A DNA stretch of 64,000 nucleotides from Sulfuritalea sp. (GCF_017302275.1 NZ_JAFLDR010000016.1:22156-86155); one strand, 5' to 3'; counted from the stretch's first letter, positions 1,985 to 61,329 are shown. Program-made: numbers and translations. The notes: generated by a model from the letters alone, not told the origin.

Positions 1985-2007
1985 AAAAGTCGGCGCTGGC
2001 GGGACGG
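1985..2007 (+). repeat. Dispersed 23-bp motif, short form
   Basis: AAAAGTCGGCGCTGGCGGGACGG, intergenic hsdM/cidA. Confidence 0.85.
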
Positions 2008-2050
2008 CTCTGGCGATATCATCCAGGGCGTCTACATCTGCCGAACGCCC

Positions 2051-2425
2051 ATGCTCCTCGCCCTCACCCTGCTCCTCGTCTACCAACTGCTCGGTGAAGT
2101 CATCGCCCAGTTCTTCGCCCTGCCCGTGCCCGGGCCAGTGATCGGCATGGGCCTGCTGTTCGCCACGCTGGCGGTGCGTGGGGCGGTATCGGACGAATTG
2201 CGCGGCACGGCCAACGGGTTGCTGCAGCACCTGTCGCTGCTGTTCGTTCCGGCGGGGACCGGGGTTATGCTGCATTTCGGCCGACTGGCGGACGAATGGC
2301 TGGCGCTCGTGGCGTCATTGCTGATCAGCACGGTGGTCACCATCGCGGTGAGTGCGCTGCTTTTGCGTGCACTCATGCGCGCACTGATGGCGCGTGGCGG
2401 CGCCGACGCAGGGCGGGAATCATGA
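2051..2425 (+). CDS. CidA/LrgA family holin-like protein
   Basis: 124 aa hydrophobic protein with PGPVIGM and LSLLFVPAGTG motifs; overlaps the lrgB-like start. Confidence 0.9.
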   Translation: MLLALTLLLVYQLLGEVIAQFFALPVPGPVIGMGLLFATLAVRGAVSDELRGTANGLLQHLSLLFVPAGTGVMLHFGRLADEWLALVASLLISTVVTIAVSALLLRALMRALMARGGADAGRES

Positions 2426-3164: not shown

Positions 3165-4160
3165 ATGCAAGCCTGTTACATCCAACGCTACGGCGGCCCG
3201 GAGGTAGTTCAGGTCGGCGTGCTGCCGGCGCCGACTCCCGGCGCCGGCGAACTGGTATTCCGCATGGAAGCGGCGAGCGTGAACCCGGTCGACTTCAAGA
3301 CACGCAACGGCATGCTGCGCGCGCTGCAGTCCTACCGCATGCCGGCGATCCTCGGCAACGATGCGGCCGGCGTGGTGACTGCACTTGGTCCCGGGGTAGA
3401 GGGCTTCGCAGTTGGCGACCGCGTCGCGGCGCGGCTGGACAAGGCGCGCATGGGGGCGTTTGCCGAGTTCGTGCCGGCACGCCAGCAAGACCTGGCGAAG
3501 ATTCCCGCGGGCGTGGATTTCGCGCCCGCCGCGGCGGTGGCATTGGCCGGGCTGACGGCCTGGCAATGCCTGACCGAGGTATTGCAGGTCGCCCCCGGCG
3601 AGCGCGTGCTGATCCACGCCGGTGGTGGTGGCGTCGGCCACCTGGCGATCCAGTTGGCGAAGGGCCTGGGCGCGCAAGTCACTACCACCGCCTCGGCGGC
3701 CAGCCACGACTGGCTGCGAGAACTCGGTGCCGATGTGTGCGTGGATTACCGCCAAGCCGACTTCAGGAACGAGTGCGCGCCCTTCGACGCGGTGCTCGAC
3801 ACGATGGGAGGCGAAACCCTGCTGCGCTCGATCACCCACACGAGGCGCGGCGGCCGCGTGGTCAGCATCGGTGACCTGCCAACGCCGGAAATCGCCGCCG
3901 AGTTTGCCAAGCCCTGGCTGGCGCCGGTGTTCTGGCTGCTCTCGCGCAAGCCGCGGGCGGCGGCTCGTGCGCAGGGAGTGGCCTATCGCTACTGGTTCAT
4001 GCGCGAGGACGGCGCGCAGCTGGCGCTGCTCCTGGACAAGATCGCGCGCGGCGAACTGCGGGTCAAGATCGACCGGGAGTTGCCGCTGGCGCAGGCGCCG
4101 GAAGCGTTGCGCATTTCGGAGACGGGCGGCGTTCACGGCAAGCTGGCGGTACTGCCTTAA
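3165..4160 (+). CDS. NADP-dependent oxidoreductase (MDR/quinone oxidoreductase family)
   Basis: AASVNPVDFK, VLIHAGGGGVGH; RBS AGGAGAGG before ATG 3165. Confidence 0.88.
   Translation: MQACYIQRYGGPEVVQVGVLPAPTPGAGELVFRMEAASVNPVDFKTRNGMLRALQSYRMPAILGNDAAGVVTALGPGVEGFAVGDRVAARLDKARMGAFAEFVPARQQDLAKIPAGVDFAPAAAVALAGLTAWQCLTEVLQVAPGERVLIHAGGGGVGHLAIQLAKGLGAQVTTTASAASHDWLRELGADVCVDYRQADFRNECAPFDAVLDTMGGETLLRSITHTRRGGRVVSIGDLPTPEIAAEFAKPWLAPVFWLLSRKPRAAARAQGVAYRYWFMREDGAQLALLLDKIARGELRVKIDRELPLAQAPEALRISETGGVHGKLAVLP
3217..3239 (-). repeat. Dispersed 23-bp motif, degenerate short form inside oxidoreductase CDS
   Basis: GGGAGTCGGCGCCGGCAGCACGC (reverse strand); encodes VLPAPTP. Confidence 0.5.
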
Positions 4161-5430: not shown

Positions 5431-5607
5431 ACCGGCGCGCCGCAGGACGTCACCCGGCCTTGCCCCATCAGCGGAGTCACGCATCGTTCGCGATCCACGC
5501 GGCCGTCCATCCCGACCTGCGCCACGTCACGGCGCTTCGCCAGCTTGGGCATGCTGCAACTGCGTCGGCCTGGTCGCGCGGGTGGCGACGATTCGGCACC
5601 ACCATCG

Positions 5608-5630
5608 CCGTACCACCGGCGCCGACTATT
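5608..5630 (-). repeat. Dispersed 23-bp motif, short form
   Basis: AATAGTCGGCGCCGGTGGTACGG (reverse strand), intergenic. Confidence 0.8.
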
Positions 5631-6805: not shown

Positions 6806-6852
6806 AAAAGTCGGCGCCCCACAGGGACTTCCTTCGGTCGCTGGCGGGGCGG
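6806..6852 (+). repeat. Dispersed motif, long form with 24-nt insert
   Basis: AAAAGTCGGCGC[CCCACAGGGACTTCCTTCGGTCGC]TGGCGGGGCGG, between convergent genes. Confidence 0.85.
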
Positions 6853-6876
6853 CGATCCACCTCCGAGCGATGCCGG

Positions 6877-9637: not shown

Positions 9638-11389
9638 TTAAGCCTTCGGTTCCTCGTGCATCTTCTTGAAATGTATCAAACCCGGCGCCCACATGTGCTT
9701 CACCGGATCGACATCGACGTGGATCACGGCGCAGCCGCCGGTCGCCAGCGCGCGTTGCAGCGCGGGTTTCAAAGCCGCCGGATCGGAGACGCGCTCGCCG
9801 TAGGCGCCCATGCTCTCGCCCAGCTTGTCGAACTTGATTTCGCCGAGGTCGGCCTTGATCGTTTCGTCGGGATCGAGGTGCTTGAAGATCATGGTCTTGA
9901 TCGGCCGCAGCATGAACTGCTGGTTCATCTTGACCATGCCCCACTGCTTGTCGGCAAGAACGATGTAGATCACCTGCGCCTTGTTGCGCACCGCCGTCTC
10001 GACTTCCTGCGAATGGAAGCCCATGGCGCCGTCGCCGATGATGCAGCACACCGGCTTGCCCGGCCGCGCCAGCGCGGCGGCCACGGCCTGCGAGGTGCCG
10101 GCGCCGAGCATGCCGAACTTGAAAGTGGAGACCACCGTGTTGGGCACCGTGACGCGGTGGTAGAACATGGCCCAGATCGTCGCGTTGCCGCCGTCGGCGA
10201 CCAGCACCGAATCCGCGGGGAATACTTCCTGGCAGACAGCGCCGATGTGCGCCGGATGCATCGGCACCGCCATGTCGGAAAGCGCCTTGTCCCAGCCGGC
10301 GCGATCCTCCTGCATGGTCTTCGCGTAGCCGGCGACGCGGGCGCGGCGGGCATCAAGCTTGATCTCGCCCTGGCGCTTCTCCAGTTCGTCGCCCAGGCTT
10401 TCGAGGAAGCGTTTGGCATCGGCCACCACACCGAGGTCGGCGGGCTTGTTCAGCCCGATGATGTCGGCATCGATGTCGACCTGTATGGTCTTCTGCTCGG
10501 ATGGATGGCGCCAGTAGGGCGGCTTGCCCCACCAGTCGGTCTCGCCGATGCGCGAACCGAGGATCAGCACCACGTCGGCGTCGTTGCGCACCTTGTGGTT
10601 GAGCTTGACGTGGGGCATGGTGATGGCCAGCGGCGAATCCTCGCTCAACATGCCACGCGCCGCCCAGCTCGTGGTCACCGGCGCGTGCAGCAGTTCGGCG
10701 ACGCGGCGCAGGGCGTCGTAGGCGTGGCAATGGATGATGCCGCTGCCGGCGTGGATCATCGGAGCGCCCGCCGCGATCAGCCAGTCGGCCGCCTGCTTCA
10801 CCTGTTCAAGAGTCGGCGCTGACGGCACGGCGTTGCGGTACTGGTGCGGCGCCCAGAACGCCACCTCGGCCTTGACCTTGCCGTTCATGATGGTTTCCGG
10901 CACGTCCAGATGCACCACGCCGGGCCGGCCTTCCCAGCTCTTGCGCAAGGCCTTGCGCATCAGTTCCGGCACCCGGTCGAAGGAGGACACGGCCGCGCTC
11001 CACTTGCCGATCTTGCCGATGACCCCGCTCTGGTCGAAGCACTGGTAGCTGCCGCCGCGATCGGGATACATGATGGTCGGCCGGCGCGCGCTGGTGATCG
11101 CCAGCACGCGGTTGCCGTCGGCCTGCTCGACCACCAGGCCGGGCAGCAGGTTGGCGACGCCGGGGCCGTTGCTGGCCATGCAGACGCCGAGCTTGCCGGT
11201 CAGCCGGGCATAGGTGCCGGCCATGTGCGCGGCGCAGGTTTCGTGGCGCGGCGTGACGATCTCGATGCCGAGCCGGTGCAGCGCCGAATAGAAACCGAAA
11301 TAGGTGCCGTCGATGATGCCGAAGACCTTCTCGACGCCTTCCTTCTGCAACATGCGGGCGAGGATTTCGCCGCCACTGATTTCAGCCAT
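9638..11389 (-). CDS. Thiamine pyrophosphate-binding enzyme (acetolactate synthase-like / acyl-CoA lyase-like)
   Basis: RHE catalytic Glu, ASNGPG, GDGAMG TPP motif; RBS GGAGG before ATG 11389. Confidence 0.88.
   Translation of the reverse strand: MAEISGGEILARMLQKEGVEKVFGIIDGTYFGFYSALHRLGIEIVTPRHETCAAHMAGTYARLTGKLGVCMASNGPGVANLLPGLVVEQADGNRVLAITSARRPTIMYPDRGGSYQCFDQSGVIGKIGKWSAAVSSFDRVPELMRKALRKSWEGRPGVVHLDVPETIMNGKVKAEVAFWAPHQYRNAVPSAPTLEQVKQAADWLIAAGAPMIHAGSGIIHCHAYDALRRVAELLHAPVTTSWAARGMLSEDSPLAITMPHVKLNHKVRNDADVVLILGSRIGETDWWGKPPYWRHPSEQKTIQVDIDADIIGLNKPADLGVVADAKRFLESLGDELEKRQGEIKLDARRARVAGYAKTMQEDRAGWDKALSDMAVPMHPAHIGAVCQEVFPADSVLVADGGNATIWAMFYHRVTVPNTVVSTFKFGMLGAGTSQAVAAALARPGKPVCCIIGDGAMGFHSQEVETAVRNKAQVIYIVLADKQWGMVKMNQQFMLRPIKTMIFKHLDPDETIKADLGEIKFDKLGESMGAYGERVSDPAALKPALQRALATGGCAVIHVDVDPVKHMWAPGLIHFKKMHEEPKA
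10808..10830 (+). repeat. Dispersed 23-bp motif, short form inside TPP enzyme CDS
   Basis: AAGAGTCGGCGCTGACGGCACGG; encodes VPSAPTL on the minus strand. Confidence 0.8.
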
Positions 11390-11512: not shown

Positions 11513-12586
11513 ATGCGACGAACCGATCCCCAGCCCGAGCCCGACCCGGCCGCCGCGCCCGGCGTCGGCGCCGGCTATGCGCGCCGCCTGTGCGAACTGG
11601 TCGAGCGCTTCGGCCTGCCGCGTCAGGGGCTGCTGCGCCACGCCGGCGCCGATCTCGCCGGTTGGGATCCGGCGCAGGCGCGCATCCCGCTCCCGGCACT
11701 GCTCGCGCTGTTTCGTTCGGCGCTGGTCCTCACCGGCCGGCGCGACCTCGGCCTCGAATTCGGCCGCCACGCCCGGCCGGACACCTTCGAGGTACTCGGC
11801 TACGCGCTGATGACTTGCCGCAACCTCGGCGAGGCCATCAGCCTGGTACCCCGCTATCGCCACGTCGTTTTCGACGCCGGCTACAGCGAAACCCGACTTG
11901 CCCGCGAAGGCGATGCCCTCAAGTTCTCCTGGGTCATCCTGCCCGAGGCCAGCGAAGCCGGCCTGCCCTACAGCGACGTCCTGGCGGAATCCCTGATCGC
12001 CAGCTGGTATGGCCTCGGGCGCTGGATCGCCGGCGCCGATCTGCCCCTGCGCGAAGCACGGTTCCGCCATGCCGCGCCGGAAGACAGCCTGCCCTTCGCC
12101 AATTTTTTTGCCTGCCCCGTGCGCTTTGACGCTGGCGAGAACGCGCTGCTGTTCGCCGCCGAACTGCTGGAGCAACCGCTGGTCCAGGCCGATGCCGAAC
12201 TCAACCTGGCAATGTGCGACGAAGCGCGCCGTTTCATCGAGCGCCGCCACGGCGACACCGGCATCGCCGCCCAGGTCCGCCGGGTGCTGGCACCGCTGAT
12301 GCCGAAGTGCGAGGCGACCCTGGCGCACGTCGCCGGCGCCATGGGCATCACGCCGCGCACCCTGCAACGCCGTCTCGCCAGCGCCGACTGTTCGTTTCAG
12401 GGGCTGCTCGACGACACGCGCCGCGAACTGGCGCAGGTGTATCTGCGCGATGCCGCCTTGTCGGCTCTGGATGTCGCCCTGCTGCTGGGCTATGCCGAGC
12501 AAAGCTCGTTCACCCGCGCCTTCCGCCACTGGTTCGACACCACGCCGTCCGCTTGGCGTGCCCGCCACGCACCACCCTCGACCTGA
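11513..12586 (+). CDS. AraC family transcriptional regulator (arabinose-binding_2 type N-domain)
   Basis: C-terminal double HTH: AMGITPRTLQRRL, LLLGYAEQSSFTRAFRHWFDTTPSAWR; divergent from the TPP operon. Confidence 0.92.
   Translation: MRRTDPQPEPDPAAAPGVGAGYARRLCELVERFGLPRQGLLRHAGADLAGWDPAQARIPLPALLALFRSALVLTGRRDLGLEFGRHARPDTFEVLGYALMTCRNLGEAISLVPRYRHVVFDAGYSETRLAREGDALKFSWVILPEASEAGLPYSDVLAESLIASWYGLGRWIAGADLPLREARFRHAAPEDSLPFANFFACPVRFDAGENALLFAAELLEQPLVQADAELNLAMCDEARRFIERRHGDTGIAAQVRRVLAPLMPKCEATLAHVAGAMGITPRTLQRRLASADCSFQGLLDDTRRELAQVYLRDAALSALDVALLLGYAEQSSFTRAFRHWFDTTPSAWRARHAPPST
12370..12392 (-). repeat. Dispersed 23-bp motif, short form inside AraC CDS
   Basis: AACAGTCGGCGCTGGCGAGACGG (reverse strand); encodes RLASADC. 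Confidence 0.8.
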
Positions 12587-15928: not shown

Positions 15929-16103
15929 GGATAGAATCAGTCGTGGGCAGTGTGTTGAATTGTATGCGACAGCGTACCGGGAATGAAAACCCGGCGCCAT
16001 CCGTATATACCCCGATCCTCACTCGTTCAGCGCACCCGCGACGCGAATGCCCGTGATGCCATCGTTGCCGAAATGCCCCGCCAGATCCAGCCCCGCCAGC
16101 TCA

Positions 16104-16150
16104 CCGTGTCGCCAGCGACCGAAGGAAGCCCCTGCGGGGTGCCGACTCTC
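16104..16150 (-). repeat. Dispersed motif, long form with 24-nt insert
   Basis: GAGAGTCGGCAC[CCCGCAGGGGCTTCCTTCGGTCGC]TGGCGACACGG, abutting the selD stop codon. Confidence 0.85.
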
Positions 16151-18425
16151 AAGCCAGCAAGGAAATCGGCTCCAGCGCCCTGCCCTGCGCCAGGACACGG
16201 CCGATGCGGACGGCCTGCGGATACCCGGCGGCTCGCAGTGCCGCGAGGCAGGCCTCGGCGCGCTCCGCCGGCAGGCTGGCCAGCAGGCCGCCGGCAGTCT
16301 GCGGGTCGAACAGCAGCGGATAGCTGGCGTGGCCCAGGGCCTCTTCCTGGTTCTTCAGCGCGCGGCGCAGGCGCAGGTTGGCTGGCTGCAGCGAACTGAG
16401 GACACCCGCTGCGACGCATTCGGCGGCGCCGGCCAGCAGCGGCAGCGCGGCGAGGTCGAGTTCCGCATCGACTCCCGAAGGCTTGGTCATCTCGACCAAG
16501 TGGCCGAGCAGGCCGAAGCCAGTGAGGTCGGTGCAGGCCGTCGCGCCGTGGGCCAGCAGCACCGGCATCGCGGCGCGGTTCGACACCTGCATCGATTCCA
16601 GTGCGGCATCGATCCACCGGCCGCGCGCTTTCAGCAGCTTGTGCGCGGCGAACAGGGTGCCGGTGCCGATCGGTTTGGTCAGGATCAGCGCATCGCCGGG
16701 GCGCATGCCGCCCTTGGTCAGCACCCCGGCCAGGCGCTCGTCGATCAGGCCGTTGATGGCGAAGCCCAGCGCCAGTTCGCCGCCCTCCCCGGTGTGGCCG
16801 CCGACCAGCGCGCAGCCGGCCTCGTTGAGCACCGAGACCGCGCCCGCCATCATCTGGAACACGATGTCCTCGACCTTGGCTTCCAGCCCCGGGGGCACGG
16901 TGGCGATGGCGGTGGCCGACTGCGCCTCGGCGCCCATGGCGAAGATGTCGCCGAGGGCATGGTTGGCCGCGATGCGGCCGAAAGTCCAGGGGTCGTCGAT
17001 GAAGGCGCGGAAGAAATCGACCGTATGCACCATGGCCTTTCCCACCGGCACCTTCACCACGGCGGCGTCGTCCGGCGCGTGCAGGCCGATCAATACGTCG
17101 TCGCGTTCGATCGGCTGCACGCTGGCCAGGGCACGCGACAGCACGCTGGCGCCGACCTTGGCACCGCAACCGCCGCAGCGCATGGCGACCGCCGAGATGG
17201 CCTGCGACTGCTCCTCGGCCGCCAGCGGCACGTCGTCGCGATCGAACTGGCGCTCGGCTGCCATCGGCGTCAACTCGGTGAACTTGCGCATGAAGCGGCG
17301 GTCGATCCAGTCCTTCCAGCGCCAGATCCAGTCGCCGCGCGCGTAGAGCGCGCCGCGCGAGGCGACGGCGTGGCGGTCGCCGGTGCTGATCAGGGCCAGC
17401 CAGCGCAGTTGCGGTCGATAGCGCGCGAGTTCCTGGCGGGTCAGTGTGCGGCGCAGGTTTTCCGCCAGCGGGCGGCCCATGCGCACGGCGAAGACGCCAG
17501 CCTTTTCCAGCCGCTGACCGCGCATCGAAGCGCAATCGCCGGCGGCGAAGATCTGCGGATCGGTCTCGCTCTGCAGGAAATCATTGACGCGAATGAAACC
17601 CGACTCGTCCAGCGCCAGCCCGGTGTCGGCCAGCCAGCCGGCGCCGCCGGCCTGGGTGACCCAGACAATCTCGTCGGCTTCGAGCGTCTCGCCGGCCTGC
17701 GTTTGCAGGCGCCCGGCATCGACTCGCACCACTTCCGCGGCGCGGTGCGTCACCACGCCCCGTGTCGCCAGCACCGACTCGAAGGCGCGGCGCACCGAGG
17801 TGTTGTGAGTGGGCAGGATGGCCGCCTCGGCGGAAAACAGGTGGAAGCGCAGTTCGTCGGGATTGCGCCCGAGCGCGACGAGTTCGTTGCGCAGCCGGTA
17901 TTGCATCGCCAGCGTAAGCTCGACCCCCGCGGCGCCGGCGCCGACCACGGCGATGGTGGTCGTCCCGGCATGGGCGCGCACGCGCTCGAACAGTGCCAGC
18001 CAGCGTTCGTTGAAGCGGCGGATCGGCTTCACCGGCACCGCATGGTCGGCGGCGCCTGGCACCCGGTCGAGCCTGGGCGTCGAGCCGATGTTGATCGACA
18101 GCGCGTCGTAGGCGACGGGCGGTCGATTGCGGCAGATCACCTTGCGTTCGCGGCGGTCGATGCCTGTCACCTCGTCGCGATAGTAGCGCGCACCGGCGAA
18201 TTCGGCCAGGCGGCGCAGGTCGATGTGGACTTCGTCGAAGCCGTAATGCCCGGCGATGTAGCCCGGCAGCATGCCCGAATATGGCGTATCGGTATCGGTG
18301 CAGATCACCGTCAGGCGCACGCCGGGCAGCGGCTTCATGGCGAACATGTGCAGCACGCCGACATGGCTGTGGCCGCCGCCGATCAGGACGATGTCGCGCA
18401 AAACAGGTGATGCCTTGGCCTGCAT
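16149..18425 (-). CDS. selD: FAD-dependent pyridine nucleotide-disulfide oxidoreductase fused to selenide,water dikinase (Cys form)
   Basis: N-domain LIGGGHSH, YSGMLPG, FAAGDC; C-domain CGGCGAK, DDAAV, TVDFF, GGHT, TDLTGFGLLGHL, DPQTAGGLL. Confidence 0.93.
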   Translation of the reverse strand: MQAKASPVLRDIVLIGGGHSHVGVLHMFAMKPLPGVRLTVICTDTDTPYSGMLPGYIAGHYGFDEVHIDLRRLAEFAGARYYRDEVTGIDRRERKVICRNRPPVAYDALSINIGSTPRLDRVPGAADHAVPVKPIRRFNERWLALFERVRAHAGTTTIAVVGAGAAGVELTLAMQYRLRNELVALGRNPDELRFHLFSAEAAILPTHNTSVRRAFESVLATRGVVTHRAAEVVRVDAGRLQTQAGETLEADEIVWVTQAGGAGWLADTGLALDESGFIRVNDFLQSETDPQIFAAGDCASMRGQRLEKAGVFAVRMGRPLAENLRRTLTRQELARYRPQLRWLALISTGDRHAVASRGALYARGDWIWRWKDWIDRRFMRKFTELTPMAAERQFDRDDVPLAAEEQSQAISAVAMRCGGCGAKVGASVLSRALASVQPIERDDVLIGLHAPDDAAVVKVPVGKAMVHTVDFFRAFIDDPWTFGRIAANHALGDIFAMGAEAQSATAIATVPPGLEAKVEDIVFQMMAGAVSVLNEAGCALVGGHTGEGGELALGFAINGLIDERLAGVLTKGGMRPGDALILTKPIGTGTLFAAHKLLKARGRWIDAALESMQVSNRAAMPVLLAHGATACTDLTGFGLLGHLVEMTKPSGVDAELDLAALPLLAGAAECVAAGVLSSLQPANLRLRRALKNQEEALGHASYPLLFDPQTAGGLLASLPAERAEACLAALRAAGYPQAVRIGRVLAQGRALEPISLLA

Positions 18426-19437: not shown

Positions 19438-21584
19438 TCTCCCCGCCGCCAGGCATGGAAGCGCGCCACCCAGGCGAGCAGCCCTTCCGGCGCGTGCGCC
19501 TTTTTCCAGACGCCGGCGACGTACTTGTTGGCCTCGGCGAGCGTCGGGTAGATGTGGATGGTGCCGAGGATCTTGTTGAGGCCGATGCCGTGCTTCATGG
19601 CCAGCACGTACTCGGCGATGAGGTCACCGGCGTGCTCACCGACGATGGTCACGCCGAGGATGCGGTCCTTGCCCGGCACGGTCAGCACCTTGATGAAGCC
19701 GTGGGCCTCGCTGTCGGCGATGGCGCGGTCGAGGTCGTCGATATCGTAGCGGCTGACTTCGTAGGCGATTCCCTTCTCCTTGGCTTCGGTTTCGTTGAGG
19801 CCGACACGCGCCACCTCGGGCTCGGTGAAGGTGGCCCAGGGGATCACCGAGTAGTCGGTACGGAATTTCTTGAAGGGGTCGAACAGCGCGTTGACGGCGG
19901 CATACCAGGCCTGGTGCGCGGCGGTGTGGGTGAACTGGTAGGGCCCGGCGACGTCGCCGCAGGCGTAGATGTTGGGGTAGGTGGTCTGCAGGAATTCGTT
20001 GGTGTCGACGGTGCGCGTCGCCGCCACGCCGATCTCTTCCAGGCCGTAGCCCTTGAGGTTGGCGACGCGCCCCACCGCGACCAGCACGGCATCGAAGGGG
20101 ATGCGCACTTCCCTGCCTTCATGTTCGGCGATCAGCGTCTTCTCGCCGTTCTCGGTGGTGAAGCGCATCGCCTTGTGGTTGAGCAGCACATCGACGCCTT
20201 CCTCGCGGAAGCGCGCGGCGACGAGCTCGGAGACTTCCGGGTCTTCGCGGATCATCAGCCGCGGCAGCATCTCGACCTGGGTCACCCTGGCTCCGAAGCG
20301 GGCGAAGGATTGCGTCAGCTCGCAGCCGATCGGCCCGCCGCCCAGCACCACCAGGCGTTTGGGCAGTTCGCGCAGGTTCCAGACATTGTCCGAGGTCAGG
20401 TAGCCGACTTCCTCGATGCCGGGAATCGGCGGCACGAAGGGGCGTGCGCCGGCGGCGATGACGATGCTGCGCGTGCTGAGTTTCCCGGTGGCGCCGTTGT
20501 GGCGCACGAACTCGACTTCCCAGGGCGAAACGATTCTCGCGCTGCCTTCGATGACGTCCACGCCGAGCCCGGTGTAGCGTTCGACCGAGTCGTGCGGCTC
20601 GACGGTCTTGACCACGCGCTGCACGCGCTCCATTACCTCGCTGAATTGAAAGTCGGCGCTGGCGGTACGGCGAAATCCGAACTCCTCGGCGCGCGCGACA
20701 TGCGAGAGGAACTTCGCCGAGCGGATCAGCGCCTTCGAGGGCACGCAGCCGGTGTTGAGGCAGTCGCCGCCCAGCTTGTGCTTCTCGATCAGCGTCACCT
20801 TGGCCCTGACCGCCGCGGCGATGTAGGCGGTGACAAGACCGGCGCTGCCGCCGCCGATGACGACGACGTTGCGATCGAACCTGGACGGCTTGGTCCAGCG
20901 CGCATAGACCTTCTTTGCCTTGACGCCGTCGACGATCTTCTTCGCGATCAGCGGGAAGATGCCGAGCAGGGCGAAGGAGCCGATCAACGCAGGCGAGAGG
21001 ATGCCGCGCAGGCTGTCGATGCCGGCCAGTTGCGTGCCGGCGTTCACGTACACGATGGTGCCGGCGAACATGCCGACCTGGCTGACCCAGTAGAAGGTCC
21101 AGGTGCGCATCGGCGTCAGGCCCATCACCAGGTTGATCATGAAGAAGGGGAAGGCCGGCACCAGGCGGAGGGTGAACAGGTAGAAGCCGCCATCCTTCTC
21201 CACGCCGCGATCGATGGCCGCCAGCCGCGGGCCGAAGCGCGCCTTGACCCAGTCGCGCAACAGGAAGCGCGCGGCTAGGAAGGCCAGCGTCGCGCCCAGG
21301 CTGGAGGCGAAGGACACCAGCACCGTGCCCCAGAGCAGGCCGAATACTGCACCGCCGGCGAGCGTCATGATCGCCGCGCCGGGCAGCGACAGCGCAGTGA
21401 CGGCGACATACACGACGAAGAAGATCGCCGCCGTCAGCCAGGGATGGGCCTGGCGATAGGCATCCAGCGCCGCCTGCTGCGCCTTCAGCGCGTCGAGGCT
21501 GAAAAAGCGGCCGAGGTCGAGCGCGAAATACAGCACGATGAACGCGGCAACGGCGGCAAGGAAGGAGAGTTTGCGCAGTGACAT
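19434..21584 (-). CDS. VTT (SNARE_assoc/DedA) domain fused to class I pyridine nucleotide-disulfide oxidoreductase (MerA/LpdA-like)
   Basis: N-terminal ALSLPGA / LRLVPAFPF VTT motifs; GGGSAG, GGDCLNTGCVPSK redox CxxxxC, GGGPIGCE, IHIYPT. Confidence 0.9.
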   Translation of the reverse strand: MSLRKLSFLAAVAAFIVLYFALDLGRFFSLDALKAQQAALDAYRQAHPWLTAAIFFVVYVAVTALSLPGAAIMTLAGGAVFGLLWGTVLVSFASSLGATLAFLAARFLLRDWVKARFGPRLAAIDRGVEKDGGFYLFTLRLVPAFPFFMINLVMGLTPMRTWTFYWVSQVGMFAGTIVYVNAGTQLAGIDSLRGILSPALIGSFALLGIFPLIAKKIVDGVKAKKVYARWTKPSRFDRNVVVIGGGSAGLVTAYIAAAVRAKVTLIEKHKLGGDCLNTGCVPSKALIRSAKFLSHVARAEEFGFRRTASADFQFSEVMERVQRVVKTVEPHDSVERYTGLGVDVIEGSARIVSPWEVEFVRHNGATGKLSTRSIVIAAGARPFVPPIPGIEEVGYLTSDNVWNLRELPKRLVVLGGGPIGCELTQSFARFGARVTQVEMLPRLMIREDPEVSELVAARFREEGVDVLLNHKAMRFTTENGEKTLIAEHEGREVRIPFDAVLVAVGRVANLKGYGLEEIGVAATRTVDTNEFLQTTYPNIYACGDVAGPYQFTHTAAHQAWYAAVNALFDPFKKFRTDYSVIPWATFTEPEVARVGLNETEAKEKGIAYEVSRYDIDDLDRAIADSEAHGFIKVLTVPGKDRILGVTIVGEHAGDLIAEYVLAMKHGIGLNKILGTIHIYPTLAEANKYVAGVWKKAHAPEGLLAWVARFHAWRRGE
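20648..20670 (+). repeat. Dispersed 23-bp motif, short form inside VTT-reductase CDS
   Basis: GAAAGTCGGCGCTGGCGGTACGG; encodes RTASADF on the minus strand. Confidence 0.8.
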
Positions 21585-24985: not shown

Positions 24986-25008
24986 GAAAGTCGGCGCTGG
25001 CAATACGG
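24986..25008 (+). repeat. Dispersed 23-bp motif, short form
   Basis: GAAAGTCGGCGCTGGCAATACGG, intergenic. Confidence 0.8.
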
Positions 25009-25331
25009 CGATTGGTAGCGGGGATGGCGGCGGGAGGCGGCGATGGCGGGCTAACCGCCCCGGGCGATACTCGTCGATCCTGGTCGCGCTCCCCCTCAGG
25101 CTGGGAAGAGACACTCAGAATTTCGGGGTGACTGACGCCTAGGTGCCCCGAGGATACATCCGCCATCCTGATCTCATTGCCGTAGAGCTGCCGTTCACCC
25201 CTGCACACCCGCATAGGCACCCACTGGAGGAACGGCGGCAACGATGGCGATGCCTGCCAGTGCGGCCCAGGCAGTGATGAAGACACGGCCCGTGGCCCGG
25301 GACCAAATGCAGGGGCTGCACGCTCAGTTAG

Positions 25332-28042: not shown

Positions 28043-28089
28043 AATAGTCGGCGCCCCACAGGGACTTCCTTCGGTCGCTGGCGACACGG
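28043..28089 (+). repeat. Dispersed motif, long form with 24-nt insert
   Basis: AATAGTCGGCGC[CCCACAGGGACTTCCTTCGGTCGC]TGGCGACACGG, intergenic. Confidence 0.88.
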
Positions 28090-34374: not shown

Positions 34375-34376
34375 CG

Positions 34377-38032: not shown

Positions 38033-39958
38033 TCAGGCCTTGGCTTCGAGCGCTTCCCAGCGCTGCAATGCGGCGTCGATTTCGGCATCGACGGCGGCAA
38101 GCCGGTCCTGTGCCTGACGCTGCAAATCAGCGGCTTCCAGATAGAAGGACGGATCGGCGAGGCGGCCGTGCAGCGCGGCCTGCTCGGCTTCCAGTGCGGC
38201 TATGCGCGCGGGCAATTGATCGAGTTCGCGCTGCTCCTTGAAGCTGAGCCTCTTGCCCGCTGCCGGCTTTGCCGGCGCCGTGTCGCCGGCGCCGACTCTT
38301 GCGGTACCGCGAAGGTCGGGACCTCCGGTGGCATCGAAACGCGCCGCCACCGCCGCCGGCCGCTGCCGCAGCCAGTCGCTGTAGCCGCCGACATATTCCT
38401 TCCACCGGCCGCCGCCTTCGGCCGCGATGGTCTGCGTCACCACGTTGTCGAGGAAGGCGCGATCGTGACTGACGAGGAAGACCGTGCCGCTGTAGTCCTG
38501 CAGCAGGGCTTCGAGCAGTTCCAGGGTTTCGATGTCGAGATCATTGGTCGGCTCGTCGAGCACCAGCACGTTGGCCGGGCGCGCGAAGAGGCGCGCCAGC
38601 AGCAGGCGGTTGCGCTCGCCGCCGGAGAGCGACTTGACCGGCGAGCGGGCGCGCTGCGGCGCGAACAGGAAGTCTTCGAGATAGCCGATCACGTGCTTCT
38701 TCGAACCGCCGATCTCGACGTAGTCGGAGCCGGGGCTGATGATCTCGCACAGCGGAGCCTCGGGATCGAGCTGGCTGCGGAACTGGTCGAAATAGGCGAC
38801 CTCGATCCTGCTGCCCAGGCGTACCTGTCCGGCGTCCGGCTGCAGTTCGCCGAGGATCAGGCGCAGCAGCGTGGTCTTGCCGGTGCCGTTGGCCCCGACC
38901 AGGCCGACCTTGTCGCCGCGCTGGATGCGGCAGGAAAAGTCCTTGACCACGGTCTTGGCGCCCGCTGTTGTCACATAGCGCTTCGAGACATCCTCAAGTT
39001 CGGCCACCAGCTTGCCGGAAGCATCGCCACGCACCACCTTGAAGTCCACCTTGCCCAGTTGCTCGCGCCGCGCCGCCCGCGCCGCACGCAGCTGTTCCAG
39101 GCGCTGGACGCGACCGACGCTGCGCGTGCGCCGCGCCTCGACGCCCTTGCGGATCCAGACCTCCTCCTGCGCCAGCATCTTGTCGGCACGCGCATTGGCC
39201 AGCGCCTCTTCGTTGAGCATGAATTCCTTGCGTTCCTGGTAGGCGGCGAAACGCCCTGGAAACGAGACCAGCTTGCCGCGATCCAGCTCGACGATGCGCG
39301 TCGCCACGCCGTCGAGGAAGATCCGATCGTGGGTGATCACCATGATTGCGCCGGCATAGCCGCGCAGCAGGTCCTCCAGCCAGAGGATGCCGTCGACATC
39401 GAGGTGGTTGGTCGGTTCGTCGAGCAGCAGCAGGTCCGGCTCCGCCACCAGCGCGCGGGCCAGCGCGACGCGCTTCTTGCCGCCGCCGGAGAGCGCGTCG
39501 ACGCGCGCATCGCCGTCCAGCGCCAGGCGCGATATGGCCTGCTCGACGCGCGAATTCAGGGTCCAGCCGTCGTTGGCTTCGAGTTGCGCCTGCAGATGCT
39601 CCAGGCGATCCAGGGTCGCCGTGTCACCAGCGCCGACTTTATGGGTGACCTCATGGTATTCGGCCAGTACCCGCGCCACCTCGCCCAGGCCCGCGGCGAC
39701 AGCATCGAACACCGTGTCGTGGCTGGCGAATTCCGGCTCCTGCGGCACGTAGGCGACCGAGAGGCCGGGCTGGCGCCAGAGCAGGCCGTCGTCGAGCGCG
39801 CCGAGTCCGGCAAGCGCCTTGAGCAGGCTCGACTTGCCGCTGCCGTTGCGGCCGATCAGGCCGACGCGCTCGCCGGCATCGATCTGCAGCGCGGCATGGT
39901 CGAGCAGTGCCACATGGCCGTAGGCGAGGCAGGCGTTGTCGAGGGTCAGGACGGGCAC
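38033..39958 (-). CDS. uup: ABC-F family ATP-binding protein (Uup-like)
   Basis: Two ABC domains (GRNGSGKS/LSGG; GANGTGKT/LSGGE), C-terminal KRLSFKEQREL domain. Confidence 0.88.
   Translation of the reverse strand: MPVLTLDNACLAYGHVALLDHAALQIDAGERVGLIGRNGSGKSSLLKALAGLGALDDGLLWRQPGLSVAYVPQEPEFASHDTVFDAVAAGLGEVARVLAEYHEVTHKVGAGDTATLDRLEHLQAQLEANDGWTLNSRVEQAISRLALDGDARVDALSGGGKKRVALARALVAEPDLLLLDEPTNHLDVDGILWLEDLLRGYAGAIMVITHDRIFLDGVATRIVELDRGKLVSFPGRFAAYQERKEFMLNEEALANARADKMLAQEEVWIRKGVEARRTRSVGRVQRLEQLRAARAARREQLGKVDFKVVRGDASGKLVAELEDVSKRYVTTAGAKTVVKDFSCRIQRGDKVGLVGANGTGKTTLLRLILGELQPDAGQVRLGSRIEVAYFDQFRSQLDPEAPLCEIISPGSDYVEIGGSKKHVIGYLEDFLFAPQRARSPVKSLSGGERNRLLLARLFARPANVLVLDEPTNDLDIETLELLEALLQDYSGTVFLVSHDRAFLDNVVTQTIAAEGGGRWKEYVGGYSDWLRQRPAAVAARFDATGGPDLRGTARVGAGDTAPAKPAAGKRLSFKEQRELDQLPARIAALEAEQAALHGRLADPSFYLEAADLQRQAQDRLAAVDAEIDAALQRWEALEAKA
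38278..38300 (-). repeat. Dispersed 23-bp motif, short form inside uup linker
   Basis: AAGAGTCGGCGCCGGCGACACGG; encodes RVGAGDT. Confidence 0.85.
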
Positions 39959-49555: not shown

Positions 49556-51178
49556 CTAAACGGGTTTGATCGTCGATTCGTCGATGCTGGCGTCGAACAG
49601 GTCCACCACCTCCCGAACGAAGGGGTCCTTTTCGATCGAGGCCACGGCCTTTTCCTGTCGTTCGCGCTGGGCGTTGCGGCTGCGTTCAGCCGGGGTTTCG
49701 GCCGCCGGTTCGGCAACGTCGATTTCCAGCCGCAGCGGGCGGCCGAAGTGGTTCTGCAATTCGCTTTGCAGCTTGTCCTGCTGCGCCTTGCCCAGCAGGT
49801 GCTTGTGCAGTGGCGCCAGACGGAGGCGAACCGAGGCATCACCGCGTTCGGCAAGCTCGCAGTGCTGGGCCAGTTGCCTTGCCATGCCGGTCAGCGATAG
49901 CTGCGCCACCAGGGCGTGCCAGTCGTTCTCGCCCGCAACCGGCGTGGCGGCGGGCGGCGTCGCTGGCACGCCTTGCCGTTGGCCTGCGGCTGCCGCGGGA
50001 TCGGGAGTCGGCGCTGGCGGTACGGCGGCTTTCGCCGGCGCGACTGGCACAGGCGTCGATTGACGCGGCGGCGCGGACGCGGCAACCGCAGCCGCGCGCT
50101 CCGGACGGAAGGCATGCAGGCGGAGCAGGCTCATGGCGAAACCGGCGTATTCGTCGGGCGCCAGACCAAGCTCATCGCGACCATGGACCGCGACCTGATA
50201 GGCCAGTTGCAGGTATTCGGCATCGAGGGCGCGAGCATAGGGAGTCAGGCGCTCACGCTCGGCGTCGTCCAGCAGCGCTTGCGGGGCGAACTGCGCCAGC
50301 GCGATGCGATGAAACAAGGTCGCCAGTTCCTGGAGGCCGCCGTCGAAGGACAGGCTGCGCGCATCCATCAGCCTGGCGACGTCGAGCATTGCCGACACAT
50401 CCTGCGCCACGAGCGCATCGAGCAGTGCGAACAGATGCTCGTCACCGACGGTGCCGAGCATCGCGCGCACCCCTTCGTCCTCGATCCTGCCCGCACCGTG
50501 GGCGATGGCCTGGTCGAGCAGCGACAGGGCATCGCGCATGCTTCCGGCCGCGCCTTTGGCCAGGTGGCGCAGGGCCGCGACTTCGAACGCCACGCCTTCC
50601 GCTTCGAGAACCCGCGACAGATGGTCGACAATCTGGGTTTGCGGCATCTGCTTCAGGTTGAACTGCAGGCAGCGCGAAAGAACCGTGACCGGAATCTTCT
50701 GCGGGTCGGTGGTGGCGAGGACGAACTTGACATGCTCCGGCGGTTCTTCCAGGGTCTTCAGCATCGCGTTGAAAGCGTGGCCGGAAAGTTGGTGCACCTC
50801 GTCAATGACATAGACCTTGAAGCGCCCGATGGTCGGCGCGTAGGTGGCGCGTTCGAGCAATTGCGTCATGTCATCCACCCCGCGGTTCGACGCCGCATCG
50901 AGTTCGATGTAATCGACGAAGCGACCGCTGTCGATTGCCGCACAGGCGGAACACTTGCCACATGGCGTGGAACTGACGCCGGTCTCGCAGTTCAGGGCCT
51001 TGGCCATGATGCGCGCCAGCGTGGTCTTGCCGACGCCCCGTGTCCCGGTGAAAAGGTAGGCGTGGTGGAGGCGGTTTTGGTCCAGCGCATGAGTCAGCGC
51101 CCGTACCACGTGCTCCTGGCCAACCAGTGTGGCGAAGGACTTGGGGCGCCACTTGCGGGCGAGGACCTGATAACTCAT
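49556..51178 (-). CDS. dnaX: DNA polymerase III subunit gamma/tau
   Basis: [42 protein letters not shown]. Confidence 0.97.
50003..50025 (+). repeat. Dispersed 23-bp motif, short form inside dnaX linker
   Basis: GGGAGTCGGCGCTGGCGGTACGG; encodes VPPAPTP on the minus strand. Confidence 0.8.
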
Positions 51179-57925: not shown

Positions 57926-58915
57926 TTACCGGGGCGCCAGCGGAGGCTCCTGCATTATCGCGATCTGCTCGCGCAGTTCGAGTATGCGTTCTTCCCAGTA
58001 ACGATTGGTCGCGAACCAGGGGAATGCCGCCGGAAACGCCGGATCGTTCCAGCGTCGTGCCAGCCAGGCCGAATGATGCATCAGGCGCAGGGTACGCAGC
58101 GCCTCGATCAGGTGAAGTTCGCGGTCGTCGAACTCGCGGAAGGTTTCGTAGCCGGCCAGCACGTTGCCGAACTGGCGGCCCATCTCCTCGGCGTCGCCGG
58201 ATAGCAGCATCCACAAGTCCTGGATCGCGGGCCCCATGCGGGCATCGTCGAAATCCACGAAATGCGGGCCGTCCGGTGTCCATAGCACGTTGCCCGCGTG
58301 GCAGTCGCCATGCAGCCGCAACAACTTCACCTTGCCCGCACGCGCATAGCATTGAGCAACGCCTTCCAGCGCCTGCTCGGCGACGCCCTGCCATACCGAC
58401 TCCAGATCCGGCGGCAGTGCCTGGTTGGCGAGCAGCCAATCCAGCGAGTCCGTGCCGAAACTGTGCAAGTCCAGCATCTCGCGCAACGCGAAATCCTCGC
58501 GTACTCCGACCTGGTGGATGCGCGCCATGAGCCGTCCCATCCATTCCAGGATGGCCGGCTCGGCGAATTCCGGCGCCCGTCCGCCTTGTTTGGGAAAAAC
58601 CGAAAAATGGAAGCCACCATGACTAAACAGCGTCTTGCCACCGATGGCGAGGGGCGCCACCACGGGCAGTTCGTCGGCCAGCATGGCGGCGCAGAAGGCG
58701 TGCTCCTCTTCGATCTGCCCGTCGCTCCAGCGACCTGGACGGTAGAACTTGGCGATCAGCGGACGATCGCCTTCAATGCCGACCTGCCAGACGCGGTTTT
58801 CGTAGCTGTTGAGCGCCATCAGGGCGCCGTCGCAACGGTAACCCACGCTCTCGATCGCGTCGAGAATGCGCTCCGGCGCCAGGCCGGCAAAGGGAATCGT
58901 GTCGGTCGCGCTCAT
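57926..58915 (-). CDS. srkA: Stress response kinase A (RdoA/YihE family Ser/Thr kinase)
   Basis: LNSYENRV, KFYRPGRW, RLHGDCHAGN, DFDD, AIQDLWMLL, AFPAAFPWF. Confidence 0.93.
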   Translation of the reverse strand: MSATDTIPFAGLAPERILDAIESVGYRCDGALMALNSYENRVWQVGIEGDRPLIAKFYRPGRWSDGQIEEEHAFCAAMLADELPVVAPLAIGGKTLFSHGGFHFSVFPKQGGRAPEFAEPAILEWMGRLMARIHQVGVREDFALREMLDLHSFGTDSLDWLLANQALPPDLESVWQGVAEQALEGVAQCYARAGKVKLLRLHGDCHAGNVLWTPDGPHFVDFDDARMGPAIQDLWMLLSGDAEEMGRQFGNVLAGYETFREFDDRELHLIEALRTLRLMHHSAWLARRWNDPAFPAAFPWFATNRYWEERILELREQIAIMQEPPLAPR

Positions 58916-58944
58916 CGCCGTGCCCGGGGAGGTTCAGGCGCGGA

Positions 58945-61329
58945 TTATAGGGTCGGCTGCGAATGCCAGTAGCGACGCCGGAGTTCGCGCTCGTGGCGGA
59001 AGACGACACCGGTTCCGTCAATCGCGATGCCGATCGCACCGTGGGCGTCGGTACGATGCAGGCGTGCGCCGCTTTGCACATAGCGCTCCAGCACATCCTG
59101 CTTCGGGTGGCCGAAGCGGTTGCGATAGCCGACTGGAAAGACCACGTCACGCGCTGCGACGGCGGCAACGAACTCGGGAGTCGATGAAGTGCGACTGCCG
59201 TGGTGCGGCGCCGTCATCACCGACGCCGCCAGCCGGACGCGATTCGTAGCCAGCAGTGCCTGTTCCGAGACCGCCTCGATGTCCGAGGTGAGCAGCATCG
59301 ATCGACCGCCCGCCGTCACCCGCAGCACGCAGCTGAGGTCGTTGCTCTTGCGCGACAGGGTTTGCGCGCCGGGATGCAGCACTTCAAAGCGCACCCCGTC
59401 CCACTCCCATGCATCCCCATCACGACAGGTTTCATGCGCCACCGGCAGCGCCGACAGCGCGTGCTCGAACGGCAGCGAACTCTTGAGCACGGTCACCGGC
59501 AGTGCGGCGATCACGGAGGCGGCGCCGCCCTCGTGGTCCTTGTCGCCATGGCTGATGACCATCGCGTCGAGCCGGCGCACGCCTTGCGCGCGCAGGTAGG
59601 GCGCGATGATGCGGTTGCCGCTGTCGGCATCGGCCGAGTAGGCCGGCCCGGCGTCGAACAGCAGGTCGTGGGTGGCGGTCTGGACATGGATCGCCAACCC
59701 CTGGCCGACGTCGAGCACGGTGACCGCGGCCGCACCGGCCACGGGCCTCGGTGGCAGCAGGGTCAGCAGCGGCAGGAAAGTCAGCAGGCCGAGCCAGCGC
59801 GCCGCGACACCGCGCGGCAGCAGCAGCCAGAGGCTGCCGGCAAGCGCCAGCAGCACGGACCATGGCGGCGGCGCCGCCTGTTGCCAGACAGCGAGCGGCA
59901 GGGCAGCCAGCCAGTCGATGAACAGCATCAGCCAGGCGGTGAGCAGCTGTGCCAACGACAACAGCGGATCGAGCAAGGGCAGGCTGCCCAGCAGGGCCAG
60001 GGGCGTAATGACCAGGCTCACCAATGGAATCGCCAGCGCATTGGCCAGCGGCGAGACCAGCGAAAACTGCTGGAACAGGGCCAGCAGCGCCGGCAGCATC
60101 CCCAGCGTGACGGCCCATTGCGCGCGCCCCCACTCGAGCAGCCAATGTGCAGGTCCCAGGCGCCCGCCGCCGATGTGGAACAGCAGCGCCACCGCGGCGA
60201 AGGAAAGCCAGAAACCGGCCGCCAGCACCGCCAGTGGATCGAGCAGCAGCACCAGCATCAAGGCCAGAGCCAACACCCTCGATGCGGCCACTTCACGGGC
60301 CACCAGGTGCGCCAGCGCGACCACGCCGAGCATGTACAAGGTGCGCTGCGCCGGCACCGCGAAACCCGCCAGCAGGCAATACAGGATCGCCGCCAACAGA
60401 CCGCCCAGCGCTGCCGCATGCTGCGCGGGAAGGCGCAGCGGCAAGCGCGTCGAGCGTCGCCACAGGCAGTTGGTCAACGCATAGGCCAGCGCCGCGAGCA
60501 TGGTCACGTGCAACCCGGAAATGCTCATGAGATGGGTGATTCCGGTGCGGGCGAACGTCTGCCACAAGCCGGCGTCGATCGAGTGCTGGTCGCCGATCGC
60601 GAGCGCGATCAGGATGCCGGCATACGGCGCCTCGGGCAGCGCACTGCGAAACCCGTCACGTATCGCTTCGCGCAGCATCTCGATCGCATACCCGGGCCGC
60701 CATACGCGGGCCTGCAGGCGTTCCGCCGAGCGCGGACGGACGTAACCCGTGGCGCGGATACCGCGCTCGAACAGCCATGCCTCGTAGTCGAATCCGTGCG
60801 GGTTGAGGTTGCCGTGCGGCCGCTTCAGGCGCACCGTGAAGCGCCAGCGCTCGCCGGCCCGCACCGGAATCCGCGGCGTCGCGTCATCGTCCACGTCGTC
60901 GCGACCGCGATACCATGCCAGCGCAACATGCGGCGGCACGCCAGTTGGCGACTGCTCGACATCGAATTCGTAGCGCACGCCGCACTCCAGTTCCTGAGGC
61001 AGTCCGGCGACCACGCCGACCAATTCGATGTCGCGCCCTTCCAGGTCCGGCGCGAGTTCATTTGCCAGGCGCAAGTGGGCATATCCGCACGCCCAGGCGA
61101 AACCGAGGCAGGCGGCCGCTCCGGCAAGCATCGCCAGGCCGACCGGACGCCGTGGCGCCAGCGACCGAAGGAAGTCACCTTGGGGTGCCGACTCATCGAC
61201 GTGCCGACCAAACAAAAAGAGAATCGGCGCAGCAGCGACAAGGCCCGCAAGCCAGCCGACTCCGGGCAATGCGGGTTGCTGCTGCAGCAGCCAGATGCCG
61301 AAGGCAAATGCCAGGACAAAAATGCGCAT
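58945..61329 (-). CDS. comEC: DNA internalization competence protein ComEC/Rec2
   Basis: DUF4131/OB region, HLMSISGLHV, VPAQR, GFWLSF, LDVGQG, SHGDKDHEGG, N..SCVL, LLTSDIE, PHHGS. Confidence 0.95.
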   Translation of the reverse strand: MRIFVLAFAFGIWLLQQQPALPGVGWLAGLVAAAPILFLFGRHVDESAPQGDFLRSLAPRRPVGLAMLAGAAACLGFAWACGYAHLRLANELAPDLEGRDIELVGVVAGLPQELECGVRYEFDVEQSPTGVPPHVALAWYRGRDDVDDDATPRIPVRAGERWRFTVRLKRPHGNLNPHGFDYEAWLFERGIRATGYVRPRSAERLQARVWRPGYAIEMLREAIRDGFRSALPEAPYAGILIALAIGDQHSIDAGLWQTFARTGITHLMSISGLHVTMLAALAYALTNCLWRRSTRLPLRLPAQHAAALGGLLAAILYCLLAGFAVPAQRTLYMLGVVALAHLVAREVAASRVLALALMLVLLLDPLAVLAAGFWLSFAAVALLFHIGGGRLGPAHWLLEWGRAQWAVTLGMLPALLALFQQFSLVSPLANALAIPLVSLVITPLALLGSLPLLDPLLSLAQLLTAWLMLFIDWLAALPLAVWQQAAPPPWSVLLALAGSLWLLLPRGVAARWLGLLTFLPLLTLLPPRPVAGAAAVTVLDVGQGLAIHVQTATHDLLFDAGPAYSADADSGNRIIAPYLRAQGVRRLDAMVISHGDKDHEGGAASVIAALPVTVLKSSLPFEHALSALPVAHETCRDGDAWEWDGVRFEVLHPGAQTLSRKSNDLSCVLRVTAGGRSMLLTSDIEAVSEQALLATNRVRLAASVMTAPHHGSRTSSTPEFVAAVAARDVVFPVGYRNRFGHPKQDVLERYVQSGARLHRTDAHGAIGIAIDGTGVVFRHERELRRRYWHSQPTL
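61150..61196 (-). repeat. Dispersed motif, long form with 24-nt insert, in frame inside comEC
   Basis: ATGAGTCGGCAC[CCCAAGGTGACTTCCTTCGGTCGC]TGGCGCCACGG; encodes ESAPQGDFLRSLAPR between two TM segments. Confidence 0.85.

Follow-up and report, generated by a model that had tools for sequence, protein, structure and literature searches.

A dispersed 25-bp motif of Sulfuritalea and related Rhodocyclaceae as a candidate DNA-uptake signal and a landing site for small inserts

Introduction

To our knowledge, sequence-specific DNA uptake is known from two bacterial families only, both of them host-associated. The DNA uptake sequence (DUS) of Neisseriaceae has 12 nt and is bound by the minor pilin ComP, and the uptake signal sequence (USS) of Pasteurellaceae has a 9-nt core in a motif of about 30 nt. 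About half of the DUS and USS copies are located in terminators, often as inverted pairs. Frame and intergenic biases have been described for both (PMC2817400; bioRxiv 10.1101/2025.10.24.684340). Temperate Pasteurellaceae phages, including Mu-like phages and IMG/VR assemblies, are reported to gather USS with the time spent with the host (PMC6776037; PMC7371117). Here we analyzed a stretch of 64,000 nt from Sulfuritalea sp. (GCF_017302275.1, NZ_JAFLDR010000016.1:22156-86155), hereafter the window, in which a 25-bp motif is dispersed over genes and spacers. An earlier note, made by a model from the window sequence, had pointed out this motif and offered three readings: an uptake signal, the site of a nucleoid or partition protein, and the target or footprint of a site-specific element. 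The motif was confirmed and extended, and uptake is the best supported of the three readings.

Other abundant repeats are also relevant. Repetitive extragenic palindromic (REP) sequences are palindromic, strictly extragenic and thought to be mobilized by REP-associated tyrosine transposases (RAYT). REP sequences and the bacterial interspersed mosaic elements (BIME) are targeted by insertion sequences, such as IS1397 and IS621 in E. coli and ISPpu9/10 in Pseudomonas. Rickettsia palindromic elements (RPE) are in-frame inserts of about 100–150 nt. The cyanobacterial HIP1 (GCGATCGC) is an 8-bp palindrome of unproven function.

Results

The motif is strongly over-represented in the window

Mismatch and gapped searches, together with a reading of each core and its flanks, recovered all 14 copies that the earlier note had listed, at the same places and on the same strands. 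The note had missed a 15th copy in uup (39617-39641, minus strand) and a weak copy at 17760 (minus strand). The window contains 15 copies of RRN-AGTCGGCRC-YGGCR-NN-ACGGCG, 11 short and 4 long, compared with 0.01–0.24 expected (Table 1). The 9-nt core AGTCGGCRC matched 24 times, compared with 3.0 ± 1.9 in dinucleotide shuffles. The 23-mer with at most three mismatches matched 12 times (0.24 expected), and the gapped pattern AGTCGGCRC-N{0,30}-YGGYRNNACGG also matched 12 times (0.01 expected). Seven copies are on the plus strand and eight on the minus strand; nine are genic and six are intergenic, with genes assigned by Pfam and by reading of the sequence. The end ACGG is kept in 12 of the 14 listed copies, as had been stated, and the other two end in ACGC (3217) and GCGG (6806).

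When 71 short copies of the window and of related genomes were combined in a logo, the consensus was RAA-AGTCGGCGC-YGGCR-NN-ACGGCG. The motif seen earlier is real, and its length is 25 nt rather than 23 bp: the logo added RAA at the 5' end and CG at the 3' end, and the motif runs through ...ACGGCG. Three GGCG units are contained in it (AGTC-GGCG-CT-GGCG-NNAC-GGCG). An Rfam scan of the window detected only the signal recognition particle (SRP) RNA and a tRNA-Arg above the gathering threshold, and the motif matched no family. The literature search found no paper containing the motif string and no paper on uptake sequences tied to Rhodocyclales or Sulfuritalea.

The short form is not palindromic, and as DNA it folded no better than shuffles (z −1.9 to +0.4). 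For the long form, neither folding as RNA nor covariation was significant. The reading as a structured RNA was dropped on these grounds.

Nine additional AGTCGGCRC cores without the 3' half were present in the window (935, 13076, 13372, 22959, 29631, 39996, 49028, 54198 and 62689). They could represent copies in decay or in formation, or they could result from codon usage (EVGA).

The constraint acts on DNA

The codons of seven host genes were shuffled synonymously, with the protein sequence and codon usage of each gene held constant. In 1000 shuffles, the genes contained a mean of 0.64 copies and at most 3, compared with 8 observed, indicating that the constraint acts on DNA and not on protein. 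The earlier note had claimed the same, and the peptides it gave (VPSAPTL, RLASADC, RTASADF, RVGAGDT and VPPAPTP) were read correctly. Besides the seven coding copies that it counted, the copy at 5608 also lies in a coding sequence, an alpha/beta-hydrolase open reading frame (ORF). Its "flavin reductase" turned out to be a fusion of DedA and pyridine nucleotide-disulfide oxidoreductase. In the motif codons GTC, GGC and ACG, the third base was identical in 40 of 45 ortholog pairs, compared with 0.69 at four-fold sites gene-wide.

A census of 99 copies in about 490 kb gave 39 intergenic and 60 genic copies; its gene calls were crude, and a few assignments are wrong. All six reading frames were represented, as were spacers. 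Forty-nine of the 60 genic copies used three of the six frames, KVGAG(D/E)TA, AVxPAPT and RRxASADF, which code for G, A, P, S, T and D. Frames giving arginine runs were rare. The genic copies sit in linkers and variable loops.

The intergenic share is about 39%. Many of these copies lie just past stop codons, and one (34375) abuts a hairpin. Intergenic copies within about 45 nt after a stop codon were found in the window (34375, 16102 and 6806) and in related loci (L013:6330-6380, L143:15311, L126:15262, L123:10624 and L141:18443). All of those listed read in the same sense as the gene upstream, and they represent about 6–7 independent sites. They could hint at a role or a constraint at 3' ends.

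Short copies arise by substitution

At the 39617 copy, the window Uup is one residue shorter than E. coli Uup. The oxidoreductase copy (RRTASADF) was aligned to mercuric reductase (MerA) structures without a gap. The copy in the thiamine pyrophosphate (TPP)-enzyme gene (VPSAPT) has one residue more than the BbmA structure, which has KP-APT there. The TPP-enzyme site was pre-adapted, because VPSAPT aligns to this pre-existing KP-APT. In the AraC-type regulator, the copy replaces residues of the helix-turn-helix (HTH) region with no obvious length change by eye. No insertion was seen at the motif relative to solved homologs, and the short genic copies arise by substitution.

Copies are conserved among relatives and decayed in one nested lineage

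Eight syntenic loci from other species were fetched via Uup or ComEC orthologs and not via motif matches. They contained 0.09–0.23 copies per kb, compared with 0.17 in the window; the motif is not confined to this region, a possibility that the earlier note had left standing. Individual sites were also shared. At the 39617 site, VGAG was present in 114 of the 120 Uup orthologs listed and KVGAG in 79. Most of the 120 orthologs carried a copy at the uup linker site (38276), some with extra inserts there. In the comEC loop, (E/K)SA(L/P)AxRR was found in most of 120 orthologs, and its flanks were hypervariable. The dnaX linker copy recurred at the same site in L125:57 and L143:154, and the copy past the EamA stop codon recurred in L143:15311 and L126:15262. 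Orthologous copies varied at the degenerate positions, and their spacer bases were common by descent. These comparisons show that the copies are old and vertically inherited.

The best relatives of the window Uup and ComEC were proteins of "Sulfuritalea sp." and of Rhodocyclales metagenome-assembled genomes (MAGs), with 74–97% identity. The exact DnaX protein was located only on short Logan metagenome contigs. A scan of 185,579 species genomes was done for the motif. Among the matches listed, those with gap 0 belonged for the most part to Sulfuritalea, to the isolate Sulfurisoma sediminicola, to Sterolibacteriaceae and to Rhodocyclaceae, with a few more in MAGs that bear the labels Propionivibrio, Azonexus, Rugosibacter and Methyloversatilis. 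Of the gapped matches listed, those in Actinobacteria and other phyla were scattered singletons and looked like chance. The runs holding window DNA were activated-sludge and wastewater metagenomes. Carriers of the Sulfuritalea type come from sewage and groundwater.

A group of loci (L010, L013, L032, L047, L055, L058, L094 and L134-L138) is mostly of lower G+C (0.57–0.64, one 0.67) and favours GGG in the spacer. Several lower-G+C relatives end in ACGGCA or ACGGCT instead of ACGGCG. These differences may be a dialect.

One lineage (proteins P0089, P0103, P0104 and P0222) had no copy at up to three mismatches in 44 kb of syntenic DNA, where 6–7 were expected from the density in carriers. The core 9-mer was absent from its first locus and occurred once in the second. 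Relics with 4–5 mismatches were present at several orthologous sites while the proteins were kept, for example LTVGAGETVA for LKVGAGDTVA. In a distance tree of one gene, Uup, this motif-free lineage was nested among motif carriers, and the simplest reading would therefore be loss followed by decay. Because the nested lineage has only decayed relics, the copies appear to depend on a lineage-specific force and to be actively maintained by it.

Temperate phages carry the motif

A scan of viral contigs found at least 120 motif-positive stretches (1.17 Mb) with at least 168 copies. When the ascertaining copy was left out, the density was 0.041 per kb in viral stretches, compared with 0.092 per kb in host stretches ascertained alike. 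Phage genes with copies, confirmed by PHROGs, encoded terminase large subunits, portal proteins, Mu-type transposases and DarB-like or methyltransferase proteins. The phage copies used the same favoured frames as the host copies.

Viral contigs showed further features. In L205, from a viral collection, an integron-integrase-like ORF adjoins a 316-nt unit repeated 4.7 times at 91% identity (629-2123 and 3489-4058). The unit has attC-like ends (TAAC...GTTAGGC) and one motif copy. The terminase large subunits of L244 (3925-7302, minus strand) and L224 (1418-3577, minus strand) are closely related, with 1126 and 720 aa, respectively. The former has an additional block of about 400 aa, its PHROG match falls into three stretches, and it looks intein-like.

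Long forms are short copies with an insert

The long form is the short form in which exactly 24 additional nt, CCCACAGGGACTTCCTTCGGTCGC or a variant close to it, separate AGTCGGCGC from TGGCG. The same insert was found at the identical internal position at 10 loci in different genomes. Most of 120 comEC orthologs are short, and the insert is present only in the window genome and P0122/L140 (ESA[PQGDFLRS]LAxRR); the window insert differs from that of the L140 ortholog by point changes. The pta spacer has a long copy in the window and a short copy in the same orientation in L143, a related Sulfuritalea MAG whose Uup is 93% identical. Because comEC orthologs and the L143 pta spacer hold the short form, the long forms are derived from short copies, each of which gained this insert at the one internal position. 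They are not a second motif, and the implicit view of the earlier note, with long and short forms as two versions of one signal, is wrong in detail.

Long forms account for 4 of the 15 copies in the window and are rare elsewhere (L013, L140 and six metagenome contigs). In sludge metagenomes, the depth over the long element rose about 7- to 30-fold and contigs broke there, indicating that the element is multi-copy. For comEC short/long polymorphism, no read in public runs joined across the 24 nt, and the runs showed only the multi-copy state. The 24-nt insert has expanded in the lineage of the window genome. It holds a small CCC-loop-GGG hairpin with a variable stem (CACC/GGTG; GTCCC/GGGAC). 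A full-length parent was searched for. The string CTTCCTTCGGTCGC occurred only inside long forms of the window and L013; a metagenome scan gave 13 matches, six in motif context and the others unrelated; and blastn against plasmids gave nothing.

Inserts of other sizes were also observed. An insert of about 21 nt is present in the uup linker, as RVPGGTQSAGAGDTA. One of about 39 nt is common to motif copies of uup and of comEC, in different genomes. In L142, a 75-nt palindromic insert shares GGGAyTCCGCTTCGCGG with the 39-nt type and resembles GGGACTTCCTTCGG of the window. As a pattern, the motif is a preferred landing site for small hairpin inserts (21–75 nt), for which no enzyme or parent element was found. 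The repeated inserts at one position point to an undescribed site-specific insertion process. The idea of a site-specific element therefore divides: as a footprint it fails for the short copies, which show no indels relative to distant homologs, and as a target site it is right for the long forms.

An unrelated in-frame insert lies just past the motif in the uup linker of L125 (11650-11800) and of P0026, P0029 and P0041, and encodes FQCRLTPDSSALSEAAGTK. It holds a hairpin with a perfect 8-bp stem (TAACGCCG-GATTCAT-CGGCGTTA) and by its look is a second kind of small repeat that the uup linker tolerates.

Copies and neighbouring genes in the window

The positions of the copies and of some other genes are listed in Table 1. 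The copy at 1985 is not coding, as even the first possible hsdM start codon is located downstream of it. The MbnB/TglH/ChrH (DUF692) enzyme gene and its DoxX-containing neighbour are probably a small gene cluster for a ribosomally synthesized and post-translationally modified peptide (RiPP), with the 24986 copy just upstream. The motif-free stretch of 40-48.5 kb was considered as a genomic island beside tRNA-Arg and rejected, as its synteny (petABC-sspAB and neighbours) is kept in relatives.

Table 1. Motif copies and other features of the window
Feature	Position	Strand	Location or description
Short copy, AAAAGTCGGCGCTGGCGGGACGGCT	1985..2009	+	Intergenic, 75 nt upstream of first possible hsdM start codon
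Short copy, degenerate, end ACGCCG	3215..3239	-	Zn-dependent dehydrogenase/quinone oxidoreductase gene; VLPAPTP directly before ADH_N domain
Short copy	5606..5630	-	Alpha/beta-hydrolase ORF, N-terminal half without Pfam match; frame AVPPAPTI
Long copy (short motif + 24-nt insert)	6806..6854	+	Intergenic, 27 nt past hydrolase ORF stop codon, convergent genes
Short copy	10808..10832	+	TPP-enzyme gene, linker between N and M domains (VPSAPTL)
Short copy	12368..12392	-	AraC-type regulator, HTH region (RRLASADCSF)
Long copy	16102..16150	-	Begins at stop codon of Pyr_redox_2-AIRS (SelD-like) fusion gene; hairpin variant CCCC-GCA-GGGG
Weak copy, 3 mismatches, core AGTCGGTGC	17760..17782	-	Inside Pyr_redox_2-AIRS fusion gene
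Short copy	20648..20672	+	DedA-pyridine nucleotide-disulfide oxidoreductase fusion gene (RRTASADF)
Short copy	24986..25010	+	Intergenic, adjoins MbnB/DUF692-type RiPP cluster (probable)
Long copy	28043..28091	+	Intergenic, about 200 nt upstream of pta
Short copy	34375..34399	-	9 nt past EamA gene stop codon, then G+C-rich hairpin
Short copy	38276..38300	-	uup linker before C-terminal domain (RVGAGDTA)
Short copy, 2 mismatches	39617..39641	-	uup first ABC domain (KVGAGDTA)
Short copy	50003..50027	+	dnaX linker, domain III to tau C-terminal domain (AVPPAPTP)
Long copy	61148..61196	-	comEC loop (ESA[PQGDFLRS]LAPRR)
hsdM	192-1910	-	Type I restriction-modification methylase, ordinary
Fusion gene	16149-18425	-	758 aa; pyridine nucleotide-disulfide oxidoreductase domain + AIRS/AIRS_C (SelD-like)
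MbnB/TglH/ChrH (DUF692)	22211-24638	-	RiPP-modification enzyme adjoining DoxX-containing protein
ORF	25332-27434	-	700 aa, no Pfam match at E <= 1e-5
tRNA-Arg(CCT) gene	40057-40132	+	Ordinary
Small SRP RNA gene	51926-52024	-	Ordinary

Discussion

We give a probability of roughly 50% to the motif being a DNA-uptake signal of a Sulfuritalea-centred Rhodocyclaceae clade, similar to DUS and USS. This reading is proposed because the whole set of properties matches the published behaviour of DUS and USS. Like these, the motif is asymmetric and hyper-abundant; in the window it is found on either strand, it occurs both inside genes and, in apparent excess, between them, and its over-representation was seen in the window and in the eight related loci. 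As with these, substitution at weakly conserved sites gives rise to it, in a small number of benign frames, and its positions are kept among related species. It is clade-wide, with slight dialect-like differences: several genera carry it, and one nested lineage has decayed relics. It also accumulates in temperate phages, as the viral stretches indicated. The uptake reading of the earlier note agrees with all of these findings (substitution origin, frame bias, conserved positions, clade spread, phages and nested decay). The support that it drew from comEC, the only competence-related gene seen in the window, did not hold. Because the motif-free lineage keeps an intact comEC too, comEC provides no receptor candidate.

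Under the uptake reading, a surface component of competence or of the type IV pilus would prefer DNA with the motif. Alleles nearing the motif by point mutation would spread more often to other cells through uptake and recombination. The motif would then build up, and afterwards be kept, wherever proteins or spacers tolerate it. Resident temperate phages would gather it too, and copies would decay once the preference was lost. The counts above cover the window, the fetched loci and the listed matches, and the figure of about a thousand copies is a whole-genome estimate. We infer that so many copies of a 25-bp word would be hard to keep by selection on each site, which favours a drive through biased uptake and recombination.

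Several points weigh against an uptake signal. The competence of the carrier bacteria is undocumented in the literature searched, and the intact comEC of the motif-free lineage counts here as well. The motif is longer (25 bp) and rarer (about one per 4–7 kb) than DUS and USS. It differs from them in having an unrelated sequence, in belonging to Rhodocyclaceae, in about 25 specified or biased positions, in its three GGCG units and in a 5–10 times lower density; densities taken from loci that were ascertained by the motif are biased. In contrast to DUS and USS, no terminators built from inverted pairs were found, and the closest two copies are 259 nt apart. No counterpart of the inserts in the motif has been described for either signal, and the inserts hint at an enzyme that acts on the motif. 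Finally, its function, in contrast to theirs, is a candidate one.

The motif might instead be the binding site of an abundant chromosomal protein (nucleoid, segregation, repair or "self-tag") and be kept by chromosome function. A protein site would explain a constraint on DNA, the conservation of positions, the even use of both strands in the window, the restriction to a clade and the decay on loss; phages that replicate in the host might also benefit from carrying such sites, and the three GGCG units resemble a multi-contact protein site. Nevertheless, we know of no nucleoid or partition protein with about a thousand asymmetric, high-information genic sites of 25 bp. Selection on each of so many sites would again be hard, and what has been published on uptake signals agrees in every point with the patterns seen for frames, spacers and phages. 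We regard a protein site as doubtful. A drive of the conversion type, in which a motif-specific nuclease, a recombinase or a process templated by reverse transcriptase rewrites near-cognate sites to the motif and copies inserts between motif copies, is less probable still. The 24-nt insert shared by 10 loci and the 39-nt insert shared by uup and comEC do suggest activity on the motif, and short copies at pre-adapted sites without indels would fit as well. Against this, copies are not homogenized within a genome, as their spacers differ from one another and are inherited at orthologous sites. The comEC insert of the window has diverged by point changes from its L140 ortholog. The arms of 12–13 nt are too short for ordinary homologous recombination, and no candidate enzyme was found.

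It is very unlikely that the short motif is itself a mobile element, transposing also in frame into genes in the manner of REP, RPE or miniature inverted-repeat transposable elements (MITEs). Its dispersal on both strands, partly in spacers and near gene ends, and the existence of larger hairpin forms would agree with such an element. However, genic short copies show no length change relative to distant homologs. Short copies in general have no terminal inverted repeats, no target duplication and no fold beyond shuffles, and their positions are conserved across species rather than polymorphic. REP sequences are extragenic, whereas 60% of the motif copies are genic. By the marks of REP and MITE (palindrome or terminal inverted repeats, extragenic location and length change), the short form is neither, and the 24-nt and larger inserts do behave as insertions. 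Scarcely credible is a polar motif, such as Chi or the FtsK-orienting polar sequences (KOPS), or an origin as a side effect of protein motifs, of codon usage or of chance. The motif shares the high G+C content of the genome, some host peptides (P-APT in TPP enzymes, for example) existed beforehand, and GCTGGCGG resembles the E. coli Chi sequence, GCTGGTGG. The copies are nonetheless split 7 to 8 between the strands in 64 kb, in six frames and in spacers, and neither dinucleotide nor synonymous shuffles reproduced them. Chi and KOPS have 5–8 nt and a strong skew to one strand per replichore; the motif has 25 bp and no strand skew in the window.

Compared with the other repeats, the motif resembles REP/BIME as an abundant repeat that serves as a landing site and as a mosaic of a conserved motif and optional hairpin modules. 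Unlike REP, the short motif is not palindromic and is born by substitution; unlike the elements that target REP, the inserts have 21–75 nt and no transposase is known for them. The comEC long form and the uup linker variants are, like RPE, small in-frame hairpin inserts in loops and linkers. They are shorter than RPE and, instead of varied sites, occupy a pre-existing 25-bp word, which is not an insertion itself. With HIP1 the motif shares hyper-abundance in and outside genes, upkeep at the DNA level across a clade and an unproven function, although its 25-bp word is asymmetric. We know of no site-specific mobile DNA as small as 21–75 nt. A combined picture, in which a third, independently evolved uptake specificity has a 25-bp tripartite signal that is parasitized by hairpin inserts of 21–75 nt homing to fixed positions, is put forward tentatively.

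If the uptake reading is true, the motif would be a third, unrelated uptake signal, in free-living Betaproteobacteria that are abundant in wastewater and groundwater. Self-preferring transformation would then evolve repeatedly, there would be a new receptor to seek, and the motif-free sister lineage would serve as comparator. The motif would also be a marker to tell core from recently acquired DNA and to assign phages to hosts in metagenomes. If it is not an uptake signal, it would still be unusual as an actively maintained 25-bp word of about a thousand copies for which no reader is known.

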